Positions 3,756 to 14,650 of a DNA stretch of 24,489 nucleotides are shown here, piece by piece. The first letter of the stretch is position 1, and each line of letters opens with the position of its first letter. Both the position numbers and the translations under genes were made by a program. Source of the stretch: a virus. Its lineage: Duplodnaviria > Caudoviricetes. Where the stretch lies: positions 1 to 24,489 of the IMG/VR virus record IMGVR_UViG_3300017913_000211. One strand, 5' to 3'. The notes under the pieces are model-generated. The model worked only from the letters and a program-made list of their open reading frames with translations. It had not been told where the DNA came from and ran no database searches.

Positions 3756-4256
3756 ATGGCTACAGTACTTTTTATAAAGAGATCGGACATAGTAAAAAAC
3801 AGTATTTTAGATGGGTCAGTAGATACTGATAAATTTATTTACTTTATTAAAATAGCACAACAGATGCACATACAGAACTATCTGGGTACAAAGCTATACG
3901 ATAAAATTACTAACGATATTTCTACGGACAGTTTAACTGGTAATTATCTTACTTTAGTGAATGAGTATGTACAACCGATGCTAATACACTTTGCTATGGT
4001 AGACTATTTACCTTTTGCAAGTTTTGAACTAAAGCAAGGGGGACTACTAAAACACACTGCTGAAAATAGTCAAAACGCTACAAAACAAGAGGTAGACTTT
4101 TTAGTCCAGAAGCATAGAAATTTTGCAGACTTCTACACAAGAAGATTTATAGACTATATGAGCTTCAACAATAATTTATATCCAGAGTATAATTCTAATC
4201 AAAATGACGATATGTACCCAGATAAAGAAGCTAACTGGGTAGGGTGGGTTTTATAA
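3756..4256 (+). CDS. Head-tail adaptor/connector protein (putative)
   Basis: 166 aa after the portal; contains AQQMHIQNYLGTKLYDKI and YPEY motifs. Confidence 0.6.
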   Translation: MATVLFIKRSDIVKNSILDGSVDTDKFIYFIKIAQQMHIQNYLGTKLYDKITNDISTDSLTGNYLTLVNEYVQPMLIHFAMVDYLPFASFELKQGGLLKHTAENSQNATKQEVDFLVQKHRNFADFYTRRFIDYMSFNNNLYPEYNSNQNDDMYPDKEANWVGWVL

Positions 4257-6607: not shown

Positions 6608-6885
6608 TGGAGGTAAACGAGAATACACAACTTACTTTAGACCTAAAAACTATAGCTATTATTATAGGGTGTGCAGTTAGTGTAGCTACTCTTTACTTTG
6701 CTTTACAAAAAGATATAGAGGAAGCTAAACGATTACCAGAGCCGATAATTAGTAGAACGGAGTATGATCTTAAAGACCAGCTTATACGCCAAACGATAAT
6801 GGATACCCAAAAAAAGGTAGACGAGAATGGCAATAAGTTAGACAAGATAGAGCAGAGGTTATACGACTTAACTTCAGAACAATGA
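6607..6885 (+). CDS. Single-TM plus coiled-coil membrane protein (lysis cassette; holin- or i-spanin-like)
   Basis: Hydrophobic segment IAIIIGCAVSVATLYFAL followed by a heptad-rich tail. Confidence 0.55.
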   Translation: MEVNENTQLTLDLKTIAIIIGCAVSVATLYFALQKDIEEAKRLPEPIISRTEYDLKDQLIRQTIMDTQKKVDENGNKLDKIEQRLYDLTSEQ

Positions 6886-7833: not shown

Positions 7834-8274
7834 ATGCCAAAAAAGAAGTTTAAAGATACTAAAGTAGGTCAGTTTATACTTAAGAAGCTACCTAACTTTG
7901 CTAAAGAAGTACTACCAAATGAGGGTGTTTTAGGCATCGTAAAGAACTTAATAGACGATGAGCCTACTCTGACTCCACAAGAAAAAGAAACGCTACATAA
8001 TGAACTTATAGAGCTTTATGAGATAGAAGTGGCAGATAGAGATAGTGCAAGAAACCGAGAGATAGAAGTAGCTAAAACTGGTAGCTTTGATCTTATGTTT
8101 AATCTAACTGGTTTAGTAGGTTTAGGAGCTTTCGCTTTTATAGTATACGCTATAGTTTATTTACAGATACCAGAAGATAATAAAGAGGTTTGGATACATT
8201 TGATAGGAATATGTGAGGGAATAGTCCTATCTATATTTGGTTACTTCTTTGGTAGTGCAGTAAGAAAAAATTAA
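7834..8274 (+). CDS. Putative holin (two C-terminal TM helices)
   Basis: EVADRDSARNRE motif, two TM segments and a GYFFGS end; follows the endolysin. Confidence 0.7.
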   Translation: MPKKKFKDTKVGQFILKKLPNFAKEVLPNEGVLGIVKNLIDDEPTLTPQEKETLHNELIELYEIEVADRDSARNREIEVAKTGSFDLMFNLTGLVGLGAFAFIVYAIVYLQIPEDNKEVWIHLIGICEGIVLSIFGYFFGSAVRKN

Positions 8275-8289
8275 ATTAGACTACATATG

Positions 8290-8404
8290 GATACTATATA
8301 GTATCAACTATATGGTACTATATAGATTCTACTATATAGTTAAATATATATAATTATCTATATAGAAGATACTATATAGTAGATACTATATGGTACTATA
8401 TAGT
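8290..8404. repeat. Array of eight ACTATATAGT-like palindromes (origin candidate)
   Basis: Copies at 8293, 8307, 8317, 8331, 8357, 8371, 8385 and 8395. A 36-bp direct repeat spans 8290-8325 and 8368-8403 with 3 mismatches. Confidence 0.85.
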
Positions 8405-8471
8405 AGTAATATAAACTAAACTTTTAAAAATCCTAATTTTTTTTTTTTTTTTATAAATATACTTTTGTCCT

Positions 8472-8870
8472 ATGCCTAAAAAGACTCCAAGAAAGAAGTT
8501 AATAAGTAAGTTAGATAATGTCTTTAGTCAGTATATAAGATTAAGGGAGTCTAAAAATGGTATAGTAGAATGCTTTACTTGTGGTAAGAAAGAGTACTGG
8601 AAAGGTAAAGGAATGCAGAACGGACACTTTATGTCCAGAAAGCACTTTAGTACGAGATGGGATGAGACTAACTGCCAAGTGCAGTGTGTAGGGTGTAATG
8701 TGTATGGTGCTGGTCAGCAGTTTATTTTTAGTAAAAACTTGGATCAAAAGTATGGAGAGGGAACTGCTGAAGCTATGCTACAACAAAGCAGACAGACAGT
8801 AAAGTATAGTAGTATAGAATTAGAAGAGAAAATAAAACACTATGAACATTTGGTTAAGAGTTTAATATAG
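8472..8870 (+). CDS. ninG: NinG/Rap-like recombination endonuclease
   Basis: LDNVFSQYIRLR, CFTCG, NGHFMSR, TRWDETNCQVQCVGCN. Confidence 0.85.
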   Translation: MPKKTPRKKLISKLDNVFSQYIRLRESKNGIVECFTCGKKEYWKGKGMQNGHFMSRKHFSTRWDETNCQVQCVGCNVYGAGQQFIFSKNLDQKYGEGTAEAMLQQSRQTVKYSSIELEEKIKHYEHLVKSLI

Positions 8871-8880
8871 GTTAATTTTG
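8849..8880 (+). promoter_or_regulatory. Bacteroidota consensus promoter driving the putative sRNA
   Basis: TTTG (8849-8852)-N20-TAATTTTG (8873-8880). Confidence 0.7.
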
Positions 8881-8883
8881 CTT

Positions 8884-8947
8884 AAACTTGCTTCAAGTTT
8901 GTTATCATTGTTCAGAAGAGAGTGTCCTAACGGATGCTCTTTTTTTT
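8884..8947 (+). ncRNA. Putative antisense small RNA (5' hairpin, 13-14 nt seed, terminator)
   Basis: Hairpin AAACTTG-CTT-CAAGTTT, unpaired GTTATCATTGTTCA, then terminator GAGTGTCC-TAAC-GGATGCTC-T8. No ORF inside. Confidence 0.6.
8914..8947 (+). terminator. Rho-independent terminator
   Basis: GAGTGTCC (8920-8927) / GGATGCTC (8932-8939) plus T tract. Confidence 0.85.
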
Positions 8948-8986
8948 GTTACTATTTTGTTAATTAAATAATTTTGTGTAGTTTTG
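8945..8986 (+). promoter_or_regulatory. Two overlapping consensus early promoters
   Basis: TTTG (8945)-N20-TAATTTTG (8969) and TTTG (8956)-N19-TAGTTTTG (8979). Confidence 0.7.
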
Positions 8987-9009
8987 AAGTGAATTAATGA
9001 TAACACAAT

Positions 9010-9216
9010 ATGAATTTACTACAAAGACTCAAGCCAGAGTACCAAAAAAGGCTACGACAAAAATCAGACGATCATCCTCAATTAGTATCTGAACTTATAG
9101 AAGTTTTAGAGACAGAGAAGTATGTTGGTAATTTAAGATACAATATAATTATTGACTTACAAGTTTTACTAAATAGTCCTACTCTTAACGCTTATACTTT
9201 TTTTGATGATATATAG
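9010..9216 (+). CDS. Hypothetical early protein
   Basis: 68 aa, first gene after the promoter pair; N-terminus MNLLQRLKPEY. Confidence 0.7.
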   Translation: MNLLQRLKPEYQKRLRQKSDDHPQLVSELIEVLETEKYVGNLRYNIIIDLQVLLNSPTLNAYTFFDDI

Positions 9217-9346
9217 TGCAGACATAAAAAGGATATCGAATAGTAGTTTAGTAGATTACCTTAACGTAAGAATTGAAGCTCTTGAAAGACGAGTAGAAGA
9301 GTTAGAGATAAAGTTAGAATTAGAAAAAAATAAACCTATATATTAA
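9206..9346 (+). CDS. 46-aa coiled-coil protein (not in the ORF track)
   Basis: MIYSADIKRISNSSLVDYLNVRIEALERRVEELEIKLELEKNKPIY*. Confidence 0.65.
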   Translation: MIYSADIKRISNSSLVDYLNVRIEALERRVEELEIKLELEKNKPIY

Positions 9347-9362
9347 CCTTTAATTAAATCAA

Positions 9363-9734
9363 ATGAAAAACGGTAGAATTAAGTACATTGACACTAACGG
9401 TCAGTGGAACGGTATGAACAAGTACCGAGTTACTTTTGCAGATGGAGAGGCTTACACCTTTTTTGCAAAGGGAGACTTTAAAGCATCTGTAGGGGACACT
9501 ATTAATTACACAGTGTCTAATGAGCAGATGAAAAATGCAAAGCTGGTTAGAGATAACTATGCTAACAAAAGCTATGGGGGTAGCAGACCTACTCCTAAAG
9601 ATGACGTGCAGAACTCTATTATTAAACAGACTTGTATAAAGGCTTCATCAGAGCTTCACGCATCGAGAGGTACAAGTGATGTACAAAGCGTAATAGAAGA
9701 TGCAGAAATAATGTTTAACTGGATAACACAATAA
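9363..9734 (+). CDS. Hypothetical replication/recombination protein (possible OB-fold)
   Basis: 123 aa: beta-rich N-terminus, linker, helical SIIKQTCIKA C-terminus. Lies next to the SSB-like gene. Confidence 0.5.
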   Translation: MKNGRIKYIDTNGQWNGMNKYRVTFADGEAYTFFAKGDFKASVGDTINYTVSNEQMKNAKLVRDNYANKSYGGSRPTPKDDVQNSIIKQTCIKASSELHASRGTSDVQSVIEDAEIMFNWITQ

Positions 9735-9736
9735 TT

Positions 9737-10018
9737 ATGAATAACAATATCGAATTTTTAAACTTCCTATACCCCAAGACTTCTAAATTAGATTTTATAG
9801 TAGCTAACGTATCTTTCAATGCAGAACAATTTGCAGAGTGGATACAGAAAAACAAAGAGAAAGCAGAAGCTAATAAAGGCTACTTACAATTTGACATATT
9901 GAGAAGTGGTAAAGACCCTAACAAATTTTATGCACGAGTATATGACTCTCCTAAAAAAGAAGCAGTTAGTACTAAAGAGCATATGCCAGACAGAGAAACT
10001 TCAGATTTGCCTTTCTAA
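9737..10018 (+). CDS. SSB-like protein
   Basis: 93 aa ending in an acidic SDLPF tail; upstream of the helicase. Confidence 0.6.
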   Translation: MNNNIEFLNFLYPKTSKLDFIVANVSFNAEQFAEWIQKNKEKAEANKGYLQFDILRSGKDPNKFYARVYDSPKKEAVSTKEHMPDRETSDLPF

Positions 10019-10036
10019 TTTTTAATTTGTTAATTT

Positions 10037-10066
10037 GGCTACTCGTAACTGGGTAGCCTTTTTTTT
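10037..10066 (+). terminator. Rho-independent terminator ending 5 nt before the helicase ATG
   Basis: GGCTACTC-GTAACT-GGGTAGCC-T8. Confidence 0.85.
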
Positions 10067-10071
10067 GAACT

Positions 10072-10998
10072 ATGATAATAAATTACAACCAACACATTGA
10101 GAAGTTAAGACAGATAAGAAATGGTAGCATAAAGGAGGGACTAAAATTAGACATACCTAATATAGATGACTACATAAGATTTAAGGATAATGCTTTTAAC
10201 GTTATATTAGGTCAAGCTAATGTAGGTAAGACTTCAGCAGTACTATTTTTAATGTTATGCTACACACTTAAACACAAAAAGAGGTGGCTAATATTCTCCA
10301 GCGAAAACCAGCCTCACAGTATCATAAGAAAATTAGTAGAGTACTTGGCTCGTAAACCACTAAACTTAATAGAGGAGGAGGAGTTTATAAAGCTAACTGA
10401 CTACATAGATAATTACTTTAAGATTATAGATACTGACAAGCTCTACACTTACAGAGACTTATTAGAATTAGGCATACAGTATAAAAATGCGTGGAACTAT
10501 GATGGGTTTATGATAGACCCTTATAACTCACTGGCAAAGGATGAGAAGCTTATGAAGAGTTTAGGAGGACACGAGTACGACTATCAAGCTACTACAGAGT
10601 TTAGACTCTTTTGTAAAAACAATAACATAACTATATGGCTTAATGTACACGCTAATACTGGTGCTATTCGTATGCTACATAGAATGGATCACGAGTACGC
10701 TGGATACCCTATACCACCAATGGCATCTGACGTTGAGGGAGGTGGTAAGTTTGTAAATAGAGCTGATGATTTTTGGGTAGTACATAGATACGTACAACAC
10801 CACTCTGACTGGATGTATACTCACATACACGTTAGAAAGGTAAAGGAAGTAGAGACTGGTGGAAAGCCTACAAGTTTAGACGAGCCGATACGTTTAAAGT
10901 CTATAATTAATAATGTAGGGTTTGAGATAAACGGACAACCTATAGTTAGGATGATAAGTGAGGACGTAAAGGCTACTAATTTTTTAAAAAGCGTATGA
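10072..10998 (+). CDS. SF4 (DnaB/T7 gp4-like) replicative helicase, no primase domain
   Basis: Walker A GQANVGKT, SSEN, Walker B IDPYN, VHAN and GGGKFVNRAD. Confidence 0.85.
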   Translation: MIINYNQHIEKLRQIRNGSIKEGLKLDIPNIDDYIRFKDNAFNVILGQANVGKTSAVLFLMLCYTLKHKKRWLIFSSENQPHSIIRKLVEYLARKPLNLIEEEEFIKLTDYIDNYFKIIDTDKLYTYRDLLELGIQYKNAWNYDGFMIDPYNSLAKDEKLMKSLGGHEYDYQATTEFRLFCKNNNITIWLNVHANTGAIRMLHRMDHEYAGYPIPPMASDVEGGGKFVNRADDFWVVHRYVQHHSDWMYTHIHVRKVKEVETGGKPTSLDEPIRLKSIINNVGFEINGQPIVRMISEDVKATNFLKSV

Positions 10999-11480
10999 TA
11001 GAAATAGATATTACTCCAGACCATATAGCAGAAGCTAAAGATTTGTATAACTTTAAGATACTTAAAAACAGTGTAACTCAAGGGGATGGTAATAAGGCTG
11101 GAGCTTTAGGAGAGGTTATAGTGAGACAGTATTATAATGCTATACAAAAAAACACTTACGACTACGACCTTATAATAGATGGTATAACAATAGATGTAAA
11201 AACAAAAAGGCATAGTGCTAAACTAACTCCCACTCCTTTATGGACTGCAAGTGTATTAGACTTTAACACTACCCAAAAATGTGAGTACTACTGTTTTGTA
11301 GGTATGGCAGATGACTACAAGAAAGCCTACATATATGGTTTTATAACTAAAGATAATTTTTATAAGACTGCTACTTTTAGAAAAAAAGGGGAGCTTGATC
11401 CATACGGAACTAAAAAGTTTTACTTTAGAGCAGACTGTTATACTATGAGAGTATCGGAGCTTGATGCCTATGTTAGTTAA
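10995..11480 (+). CDS. Putative PD-(D/E)XK-like nuclease
   Basis: GALGE...YDYDLIIDGITIDVKTK catalytic-like arrangement. Confidence 0.55.
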   Translation: MIEIDITPDHIAEAKDLYNFKILKNSVTQGDGNKAGALGEVIVRQYYNAIQKNTYDYDLIIDGITIDVKTKRHSAKLTPTPLWTASVLDFNTTQKCEYYCFVGMADDYKKAYIYGFITKDNFYKTATFRKKGELDPYGTKKFYFRADCYTMRVSELDAYVS

Positions 11481-11524: not shown

Positions 11525-11740
11525 ATGATATTATATGGCATAGTAGGTTTTATTATTCTACTGATATTTTTAATAGCTCTTACTGATAAGTATAACCCAG
11601 CTTTACAATTCCATATTATTACTGGGTTTGGTTTTTTGTTTCTATATGACGAGACAGAGACAGAGGATGGCTTACAAGTAATATATCAGCTTATGTTAGG
11701 TATAGTACTAATTTCAATATCCTATACCAGAAATGATTGA
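11525..11740 (+). CDS. Small membrane protein
   Basis: 71 aa with 2-3 hydrophobic segments; overlaps the start of the sigma gene. Confidence 0.6.
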   Translation: MILYGIVGFIILLIFLIALTDKYNPALQFHIITGFGFLFLYDETETEDGLQVIYQLMLGIVLISISYTRND

Positions 11741-12248
11741 GAAGTTACACAGATACGAGAAGCTTTGGCTTAAGTATATAACTGAATGTGGGTGTAACAT
11801 AGACACTGCAAAAGATATCTTACAAGAATTTTATATTAAAATGATGAACAAAGAGGACTACTCTTATGATGAGGATAGTCCTAATTTTTATGGGTGCTAT
11901 GTGGTATTAAGAAATATGGTGTTTGATTTAAAGCGTAAAGAAAAAAAGATACAGTTTGTAGAATTAGACTACTTAATAGAAGCAGAAGACGAGGGGTATA
12001 CAGAGGATGACTTTGATCTGAAAGTTAAAGCTATATCTAAATGGCTTGAGCATAACTCTATAGACTTCACTAAAGAATACATAGAATACAATAGAGACAT
12101 ACTCACAAAGGTATGGTATAAAGAGATTTATCAAGCTATATTTGAGAGTGGTATAAGTATGCTACAATTCTCAAAGGACACTGGTATAAGCTATGATACA
12201 GTGAGAGTAGCAGTAAGAGACATTAAAGAACAAATAAAAAACCAATGA
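11733..12248 (+). CDS. ECF-like RNA polymerase sigma factor
   Basis: Region 2-like TAKDILQEFYIKM and VLRNMVFDLKRK; region 4 HTH SMLQFSKDTGISYDTVRVAVRDIKEQI. Confidence 0.75.
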   Translation: MIEKLHRYEKLWLKYITECGCNIDTAKDILQEFYIKMMNKEDYSYDEDSPNFYGCYVVLRNMVFDLKRKEKKIQFVELDYLIEAEDEGYTEDDFDLKVKAISKWLEHNSIDFTKEYIEYNRDILTKVWYKEIYQAIFESGISMLQFSKDTGISYDTVRVAVRDIKEQIKNQ

Positions 12249-13033: not shown

Positions 13034-13065
13034 TTTGGAAAGTTATTAACAATTTACTATATTGC
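13034..13065 (+). promoter_or_regulatory. Host-type early promoter
   Basis: TTTG (13034-13037)-N20-TATATTGC (13058-13065). An imperfect palindrome GTTATTAAC lies in the spacer. Confidence 0.6.
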
Positions 13066-13080
13066 ATCATATTAATTTAA

Positions 13081-13215
13081 AAAAAAGCAGTCGAAACCTC
13101 TTTTTAGGTTACGCTACCACGCTGAATTAGTAGTTAGATACGGATATGGATACTAATGAAAGTCAGAATGAATGATGAACAATAGGACTAATTAGACTTA
13201 CTAAACTGCTTTTTT
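13081..13215 (+). ncRNA. Putative structured leader RNA / ncRNA
   Basis: Closed by a perfect 11-bp stem AAAAAAGCAGT/ACTGCTTTTTT. Internal stems AACCT/AGGTT, ATTAGTA/TACTAAT and AGTC/GACT. Lies between a promoter and the first ORF. Confidence 0.55.
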
Positions 13216-13231
13216 ATTTAAAAATAAAACA

Positions 13232-13336
13232 ATGATAGAAGATTTAAAATGTGAAATGTGTAACAGTCTAATGTCTTTAGAGGAGTATGACTTCTGTGAT
13301 ATATGTCCAGACTGTAGAGACCAAATGGACTTATAA
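13232..13336 (+). CDS. 34-aa zinc-ribbon micro-protein (not in the ORF track)
   Basis: MIEDLKCEMCNSLMSLEEYDFCDICPDCRDQMDL* (CxxC...CxxCxxC); TAATG-coupled to the next gene. Confidence 0.75.
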   Translation: MIEDLKCEMCNSLMSLEEYDFCDICPDCRDQMDL

Positions 13337-13581: not shown

Positions 13582-13768
13582 TATTCTACTATGGGTAGAG
13601 TATGACTTTAGAGATGGAGAAGAGCAAACCTATGATTATGTAGGCAGTCCTCCAACAGTAGATATTTACTCTATTTATGTAGGTGGGGTAGATATTATGG
13701 ATATTTTTAGTAATGACCAATTAGAGTATATAGAAACAAAAATTATAAATCAACACATAGAACAATGA
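13556..13768 (+). CDS. Hypothetical acidic protein
   Basis: 70 aa with a GEEQTYDYVGSPPTVDI motif. Confidence 0.7.
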   Translation: MQTEVNLYDILLWVEYDFRDGEEQTYDYVGSPPTVDIYSIYVGGVDIMDIFSNDQLEYIETKIINQHIEQ

Positions 13769-14504: not shown

Positions 14505-14650
14505 TGAGAAAGAATAAAGTAAACCAAGTACAAAGGATAGCCAGACTTGAGAGACTGTTTACACAGATGTACCTTAAGATAGAGGCTTTTAAAGTAAGAT
14601 TAGAACAATTTGAAAATAAGAACAATGAAGATAAAACTACTGGACAATAG
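14504..14650 (+). CDS. 48-aa coiled-coil protein (not in the ORF track)
   Basis: MRKNKVNQVQRIARLERLFTQMYLKIEAFKVRLEQFENKNNEDKTTGQ*. TAATG-coupled. Confidence 0.65.
   Translation: MRKNKVNQVQRIARLERLFTQMYLKIEAFKVRLEQFENKNNEDKTTGQ

Follow-up and report, generated by a model that had tools for sequence, protein, structure and literature searches.

A predicted small RNA downstream of ninG as a candidate trans-acting antisense repressor of early genes in a family of uncultured phages

To our knowledge, how early genes are shut off in repressor-less phages with host-type promoters is largely open outside a few coliphages. This question is raised by the virus record IMGVR_UViG_3300017913_000211, of which we analysed a stretch of 24,489 nt (24.5 kb, hereafter the window). 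Every gene of the window lies on the same strand, with portal, tail and lysis genes, ninG, an early/replication block, the terminase and further tail genes. An initial annotation had proposed that an ORF-less unit following ninG encodes a small RNA which pairs with start codons of the phage's own early genes, as a switch for dormancy, immunity or early-gene shut-off. The element is real, conserved and covarying, and the candidate is very likely a regulatory antisense RNA. Our main reading, to which we assign a probability of roughly 0.76, is that the unit would yield a trans-acting antisense RNA, here predicted from sequence, that blocks early-gene translation and most likely acts as an early-to-late timer.

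The predicted host is a member of the Bacteroidota, probably of the Flavobacteriaceae. We infer the phylum because the promoters are of the TTTG/TAnnTTTG type, the nearest cultured portal protein is that of Nonlabens phage P12024S, and the bins of relatives are mostly Bacteroidota (6 of the 7 relatives among the genome matches were binned with Bacteroidota metagenome genomes). Complete relatives measure 29-34 kb, and searches of cultured phages by helicase, ninG and portal returned distant relatives only. The earlier remark that no repressor or integrase is visible held in a wider sample: among 29 virus records, 27 of them at least 90% complete, we found neither a tyrosine integrase (serine recombinases and partition genes lay outside this search) nor an HTH_3 repressor above cut-off. 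A search of 185,579 species genomes gave no chromosomal prophage; its seven matches were all short contigs (0.6-29.7 kb) in metagenome bins. Contigs of three runs of unrecorded kind were compared with 8200-11000; the two that cover the unit show no listed difference at 8763-9086, which bears on the assembly and not on expression. The features of the unit and its surroundings are as follows.

8472-8870, plus strand: ninG/rap junction endonuclease gene (PF05766, E=1e-13; phrog_5034)
8849-8880, plus strand: Bacteroidota primary-sigma promoter over the ninG stop codon (-33 TTTG at 8849-8852, 20-nt spacer, -7 box TAATTTTG at 8873-8880)
8885-8947, plus strand: predicted small RNA of about 63 nt, ORF-less (from the fold and the promoter and terminator calls)
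8884-8900, plus strand: 5' hairpin of 7 bp (predicted fold)
8899-8914, plus strand: single-stranded seed, with the core TTATCATTG common to 29 loci
8914-8947, plus strand: intrinsic terminator, with a 14-bp stem (8914-8945) and a U-run
8945-8986, plus strand: tandem host-type promoters of early operon 1 (-7 boxes at 8969-8976 and 8979-8986)
13034-13065, plus strand: host-type promoter of early operon 2 (TTTG, 20 nt, TATATTGC; read from sequence)
early/replication block, plus strand: helicase at 10072, sigma factor at 11733, exonuclease at 14625

Promoter, hairpin, seed and terminator were thus all recovered where the initial annotation had placed them. Transcription of the unit is predicted to start at 8885-8886, using the promoter consensus and the 4-5 nt spacing given in the accessible text of PMC6847099. 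The unit folds with z = -4.45, and none of 200 shuffled sequences folds equally well; seed bases 8900-8913 have an unpaired probability of 0.85-1.0. The unit shows the features of the small RNA class, namely its own promoter, an intrinsic terminator, no ORF and a single-stranded seed that is more conserved than the flanking structure. A general sigma-70 promoter scan found 47 promoters against 47.3 expected and is uninformative in this phylum. We rejected a minus-strand gene starting from the AUG of the seed: the mini-ORF has 3-20 codons and is not conserved, and CAT is present in just 17 of 38 lineage bodies.

What could such a seed recognize? The sites found in the window are listed below.

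8996-9005, plus strand: leader site of the first early gene (AUG 9010), 10/10 pairs, opening cost 1.1-1.5 kcal/mol in the predicted transcript
10066-10079, plus strand: site over the AUG of the DnaB-like helicase (10072-10998; phrog_18375, phrog_19), 13/14 pairs, one of them G-U
13228-13237, plus strand: site over AUG 13232 of the first gene of early operon 2, 10/10 pairs
13760-13768, plus strand: site over the AUG of a conserved 45-aa early gene (13765), 9/9 pairs
14620-14628, plus strand: site over the AUG of the PD-(D/E)XK exonuclease (14625), 9/9 pairs
6877-6885, plus strand: 9-nt match over a late-region gene start (6882), opening cost 5.7 kcal/mol

The two perfect 10-nt matches and the 13 of 14 pairs at the helicase start are as the initial annotation had described them. 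Its extension of the helicase pairing to 21 of 22 bases is formally present but probably not real, and we rejected it: it could form only if the terminator stem opened, its partner is the U-tail of a second terminator, and relatives have not kept it. The three 9-nt matches all exist as well, but that at 6882 is probably incidental, because the gene has no orthologue among 28 close relatives and the site is poorly accessible. The site at 8996-9005 is retained in close relatives, and the helicase site, directly behind a terminator at 10037-10067, changes with the seed between sub-clades. The exonuclease site is the best accessibility-corrected site of the window; conservation among its orthologues is patchy (at least 9 nt in 5 of 11 distinct contexts). 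The second conserved early gene (9363) is not a target of the seed.

All five plus-strand sites with a Watson-Crick match of at least 9 nt to 8901-8914 are located at a start codon or immediately ahead of one; on the minus strand of the window, the only such match is the seed itself. Four of the 21 early starts carry a match of this length, whereas 500 shuffled seeds gave 0.06 on average and at most 2, the control that the initial annotation had proposed. Mean duplex energy at the 21 early starts was -7.7 kcal/mol versus -4.4 kcal/mol for shuffled seeds (p=0.002), and at 25 late starts it was -5.5 versus -4.6 kcal/mol (p=0.06). Pairings at the bare sites span 9-14 nt, are AU-rich and reach -9 to -12 kcal/mol.

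The evidence is much stronger across the family than in the window alone. We collected related loci in four scans (the best 80 of 148 matches, the best 80 of 117, 7 of 7 and the best 80 of 594), which gave 236 sequences: 18 without ninG, 6 too short, 27 without a called terminator and 185 with the unit. The unit therefore stands 3' of ninG in 185 of 212 scorable loci, representing 38 lineages, and ninG, the last gene ahead of it, is its constant upstream neighbour. The 27 loci without a called terminator comprise 20 distinct sequences, of which 10 have a terminator that is visible by eye but had escaped the script, 8 belong to a differently arranged lineage with a leaderless gene 3' of ninG, and 2 are without the unit. 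A relaxed -7 box precedes 161 of the 185 units (a strict one, 131), compared with 28 of 296 coding windows of roughly similar length; the box is missing in 4 of 38 lineage representatives, and some lineages have no good box even further upstream. In relatives, the median length of the predicted RNA is 70 nt, and a -7-like box lies between the terminator of the unit and the next start in 34 of 38 lineages. A DNA pattern scan with the window's seed returned 28 stretches, 22 of them with ninG within 300 nt; the other six were three RNA units near contig ends and three unrelated chance matches. About 2500 stored stretches carry a ninG pattern of this kind.

Across seven aligned close relatives, TTTGG and TA..TTTGC are invariant and the distance between the boxes is fixed, while the spacer bases vary. 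The 5' hairpin changes in sequence and maintains its pairing, and the terminator likewise differs in sequence and retains its hairpin. As the promoter boxes and the seed core stay fixed while the hairpin and terminator sequences change, the seed appears to be under selection, in line with the conservation that the initial annotation had asked for. Family-wide the 5' hairpin is optional, and in 11 of 32 lineages it clearly outperforms shuffled sequences (z<-1); where present, it usually begins at the predicted first base. As separate observations, in one locus (L127, 1150-1215) ninG runs straight into an early promoter, the RNA unit having been lost naturally; L018-type phages have a different gene order, with a leaderless gene placed after ninG; and L011, L201, L214, L222 and L233 have an extra conserved GCTAACCAG-type stretch between seed and terminator.

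We then compared each seed with start regions of its own and of foreign lineages, the lineages being defined by NinG identity alone, independent of the seed. At the adjacent gene the longest complementary run averaged 8.2 nt with the own seed versus 6.2 nt with foreign seeds (38 lineages; 0/100000 permutations), and a first pass with 11 hand-made groups had given -13.6 versus -8.9 kcal/mol. When the adjacent gene was excluded, 8.6% of distant early starts had a match of at least 10 nt to their own seed versus 1.6% to foreign seeds (31 lineages, 556 windows; p<1e-5, 0/100000 permutations). In 22 lineages absent from the first set, two of which share the window's seed, the distant early starts gave 7.8% versus 1.35%. 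Late starts gave 1.4% versus 0.8% (p=0.13), with a weak trend in the new lineages (p=0.07). In ten whole genomes, 22 of 212 early and 9 of 317 late starts were matched (p=5e-4); several of the nine late matches are small genes in an island after terL, and others use the hairpin arm and not the seed, as in G025. Internal AUGs were matched in 9 of 1157 cases, compared with 66 of 613 early starts. When G-U pairs and bulges were allowed, the own genome ranked first for 8 of 31 seeds and among the top three for 13 of 31 (p=2e-5). The covariation that had been put forward as a check is thus present and lineage-specific at both adjacent and distant early genes.

The 3' end of the seed varies in step with its targets. 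Within the window's group, seeds ending in GUUC go with G at position -5 in 7 of 10 early AACA-AUG starts, whereas seeds ending in GUUU go with A in 21 of 21 (contrast p=5e-5), and the switch can be seen directly at the orthologues of the helicase and of the 13765 gene, the latter with a compensatory G/A between sub-clades. This compensation is one seed change (U to C) between two sub-clades, mirrored at several separate target genes. Early operon 2 has promoter boxes similar to those of the window in 11 relatives, and in 11 of 12 close genomes its leader contains a site of 9 nt or more, ahead of six different kinds of first gene; as the site survives these gene swaps, the tag belongs to the regulatory position rather than to one gene. 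Elsewhere, complementarity between the seed of L066 and the leader adjacent to it extends to 19 bases, and several further early genes of L013 are preceded by the tag TCACTAAAA and close variants of it. The seed bases that pair are the exposed ones (unpaired probability 0.71 versus 0.51, higher in 23 of 30 lineages), and single mismatches lean to G-U (9 of 16 versus 4.3 expected, p=0.012), both as expected of RNA-RNA pairing. Since the seed mirrors the early starts and changes in step with them between lineages, the unit probably encodes a single small RNA by which these genes would be turned down jointly. The trans-acting anti-start-codon reading of the initial annotation is therefore supported by shuffled seeds, by seed conservation and by covariation that includes distant genes, for what is still a predicted RNA.

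How might such an RNA work? Host RNA polymerase would transcribe it from the moment of infection, since its promoter is of the same host type as those of the early operons. The 5' hairpin and the terminator would stabilise the RNA enough for it to accumulate, and the exposed seed would pair in trans with early and replication mRNAs and block their translation. Its targets would be covered, often including the AUG, in the A-rich region from -20 to +5, on which Bacteroidota ribosomes depend instead of a Shine-Dalgarno sequence. According to the accessible text of PMC6847099, what counts for initiation in Bacteroidota is not Shine-Dalgarno pairing but an open structure with adenines at -3, -6, -12 and -13; the matches start mostly 10-20 bases before the AUG and therefore cover these positions. 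Accumulation of the RNA would then silence the helicase, the exonuclease, several small genes and whichever gene comes first after each early promoter. The terminator also ends any ninG or late transcript, so late transcripts through ninG could add further seed, as could gene dosage after replication. Read-through RNA would in addition fold the seed onto the adjacent leader in cis; in the modelled read-through RNA the seed pairs with 8990-9012 at a probability of about 0.86. The overall logic would be a delayed negative loop, in which early genes are translated first and then damped, and the same pairing would block a later-arriving phage of matching seed type.

That the unit encodes a putative base-pairing repressor of early translation is a shade more probable than the main reading as a whole. 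Given such a repressor, we lean towards a timer or damper of the lytic cycle; control of superinfection or of a carrier state is the less probable role, though a serious one. Genes under the phage's own sigma factor would escape the RNA. A CGTTAT-like motif lies upstream of 35 of 317 late and 2 of 212 early starts, with CGTTATA a few bases before late-gene starts at 1560, 15806 and 17346 of the window and in relatives. It is presumably a candidate late promoter for the phage sigma factor (11733-12248), and late genes with this motif lack the seed tag.

The same RNA could instead be an RNA-only immunity or dormancy switch, through which a resident genome, in a carrier state or as a plasmid, silences its early genes and blocks phages of the same seed. 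This is a possibility that we hold only tentatively. Seeds diverge strongly between lineages while their targets follow, the helicase and the leading genes of the two early operons are among these targets, and a protein switch is not evident because the 29 records have no HTH_3 repressor above cut-off. However, the same records are without a tyrosine integrase, the seven genome matches are all short metagenome-bin contigs, and nothing indicates a way of switching the RNA off. Among the purposes suggested by the initial annotation, early-gene shut-off thus fits best, whereas dormancy and immunity are without positive evidence, with neither a tyrosine integrase nor a chromosomal prophage found. 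It is also conceivable, although unlikely, that the seed acts in trans as the 3' end, or a cut piece, of the ninG or late mRNA, only late in infection and with the promoter match being secondary. The shared terminator, the lineages without a clear -7 box and a late timing that would suit early-gene shut-off agree with this, but the promoter boxes are conserved at a fixed distance across variable spacer bases and the hairpin tends to begin at the predicted first base. Slightly less likely again is a safety catch in cis only, in which the seed in late or ninG read-through RNA masks the adjacent early leader and prevents early re-expression. The modelled read-through pairing and the strong covariation with this leader are in its favour, yet it leaves unexplained why many genes at distances of 1-7 kb, beyond other promoters and terminators, match the seed of their own lineage, and most elements have a dedicated promoter directly ahead of the seed.

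Two further readings dispense with an antisense RNA. The motif might be a DNA site with one inverted and many direct copies, serving as an operator or recognised by an RNA-guided protein, as the shared leader motif recurs before many early genes and often right behind promoters. We consider this very improbable: early regions hold 104 coding-strand complements versus 16 sense copies, start windows contain 56 of these complements although they make up 7.7% of the length, several sites lie mid-operon, mismatches favour G-U, and next to the lack of an HTH_3 repressor, PHROGs and Pfam scans of the window gave no Cas12f- or TnpB-like protein. Least probable of all, and already largely refuted, is that a U-rich stretch before a terminator meets the A-rich start regions of Bacteroidota by chance, a concern that the initial annotation had itself raised for its 9-mers from common start contexts. 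Seeds are indeed U-rich, and reversed seeds still gave 30 matches, compared with 77 for the true seeds and 17.5 for shuffles, because many seeds are of low complexity; taken singly, just 13 of 31 lineages differ significantly from shuffles, and in 6 of 31 a distant 9-nt match is absent. Gene starts were taken from a simple ATG-only caller, which misses GTG starts. Nevertheless, the own-versus-foreign tests preserve composition and still give p<1e-5, a compensatory change recurs at separate genes, and late, internal and putative-host starts are without signal. In 20 pieces of one Lacinutrix bin, a putative host only and with 9 of these pieces belonging to contigs that were chosen by size or because they contain a motif match, none of 191 starts had a match of at least 10 nt to the window's seed, and across 38 seeds a mean of 0.8% of the same starts was matched. 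These host counts likewise leave a general anti-host RNA unsupported.

The preferred reading, a trans-acting antisense repressor of early genes, invites comparison with RNA-based immunity in temperate phages, namely the c4 RNA and the related system of the P4 CI RNA. In both, the RNA is processed from the leader of its own target operon and immunity specificity is set by differences between seed and target. The c4 RNA of P1 and P7 (immI region) lies upstream of and co-directional with the gene that it controls and is needed to repress icd-ant, as described in the accessible part of PMC8198154. The phage unit is alike in being upstream of and co-directional with a gene putatively controlled by short pairing. 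In contrast to c4, which controls one antirepressor operon within the protein-repressor circuit of a temperate phage, its single seed matches many early and replication starts, and its own terminator followed by new promoters separates it from the target operon. Neither the window nor 20 related loci matched the c4 or P4 CI models of Rfam; at E<=1 the window had a single irrelevant Rfam match at 3831, and the 20 loci had none at gathering score. No icd/antirepressor or kil family was found among the window proteins (45 scanned with PHROGs, 20 with Pfam).

The closest design within the phylum is GibS of Bacteroides thetaiotaomicron, which, in the accessible portion of PMC7366714, represses mRNAs without Shine-Dalgarno sequences through a single-stranded seed over the start codon. 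The phage RNA, predicted from sequence, resembles it as a stand-alone, trans-encoded small RNA and shares its short complementarity to unlinked mRNA start regions beyond chance. GibS is host-encoded, about 145 nt long, has two metabolic targets and a conserved seed, whereas the phage unit is phage-encoded, about 60-75 nt long, without an Rfam match and aimed at the phage's own regulon, with a seed that diversifies together with its targets. Known phage RNAs also tune the phage cycle or exclude superinfection by pairing; those covered by the accessible part of PMC12197685 are the antisense RNAs sar, sas, OOP, aQ and STnc6030 and the trans-acting PreS, VpdS and 24B_1. There they belong to temperate phages of Proteobacteria and are either cis-antisense to one gene or Hfq-dependent and largely host-directed, and that part of the source contains no phage RNA that silences a set of its own early starts via a shared tag. 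We found no description of a ninG-linked anti-start RNA in the literature searched, in which subscription papers were sparsely covered. The abstract and a part of the supplement of PMC10690425, a catalogue of candidates from IMG/VR, contained neither the seed nor NinG; its 10,006 unnamed candidates may include the unit or the terminator. The closest cultured phage, Nonlabens phage P12024S (Inhavirus), has a portal protein 38.7% identical to that of the window, a similar late-gene order and a sigma-70-region-2 protein, but no annotated ninG and no hairpin-seed-terminator unit at its late/early junction (11107-11277), and therefore does not offer itself as a test system.

For an abundant uncultured group, the predicted unit offers a concrete answer to the shut-off question: one short RNA and a lineage-specific start-region tag on early genes. 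The family is large, uncultured and likely to infect Flavobacteria, and its natural seed/target pairs are a ready set of compensatory variants that illustrate antisense control where ribosomes ignore Shine-Dalgarno sites. They could supply compact, mutually independent translational repressors for the engineering of Flavobacterium and Bacteroides. It is tempting to speculate, although we find it rather doubtful, that a single programmable RNA constitutes a protein-free master switch between growth and a silent carrier state, in which tagged early genes are enrolled and seed changes create immunity groups; if true, this would amount to a protein-free lysis/persistence and superinfection system in a very large family of marine and freshwater Bacteroidota phages.

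Several further observations concern the same genomes. Just before ninG, positions 8285-8412 of the window hold nested palindromic CTATATAG-type repeats with 64-nt arms, followed by a long T-run, an origin-like arrangement; these repeats are abundant only in close relatives. At 8460-8474, a -7 box TACTTTTG stops 4 bases short of the AUG of ninG, which suggests that the ninG mRNA is leaderless. Within 10037-10072, an intrinsic terminator ends 4-5 bases before the helicase AUG, also in close relatives, and the helicase therefore seemingly stands behind both a terminator and a seed site. The leader of early operon 2 contains a structured insert of about 140 nt (13080-13215) with a long-range closing stem (-25 kcal/mol); a partly similar insert precedes the same gene in L002, and most relatives have none. 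In G019, G022, G003, G012 and G030, strong matches to the seed, the longest of 17 nt in G022, occur in small ORFs located after terL and ahead of the following late gene, which suggests that this island is a third early-type operon under the same predicted RNA. Finally, two tandem, similar units of hairpin and U-run (1425-1459 and 1503-1537) follow a 50-aa gene of the window, with -7-like boxes at 1461 and 1492.
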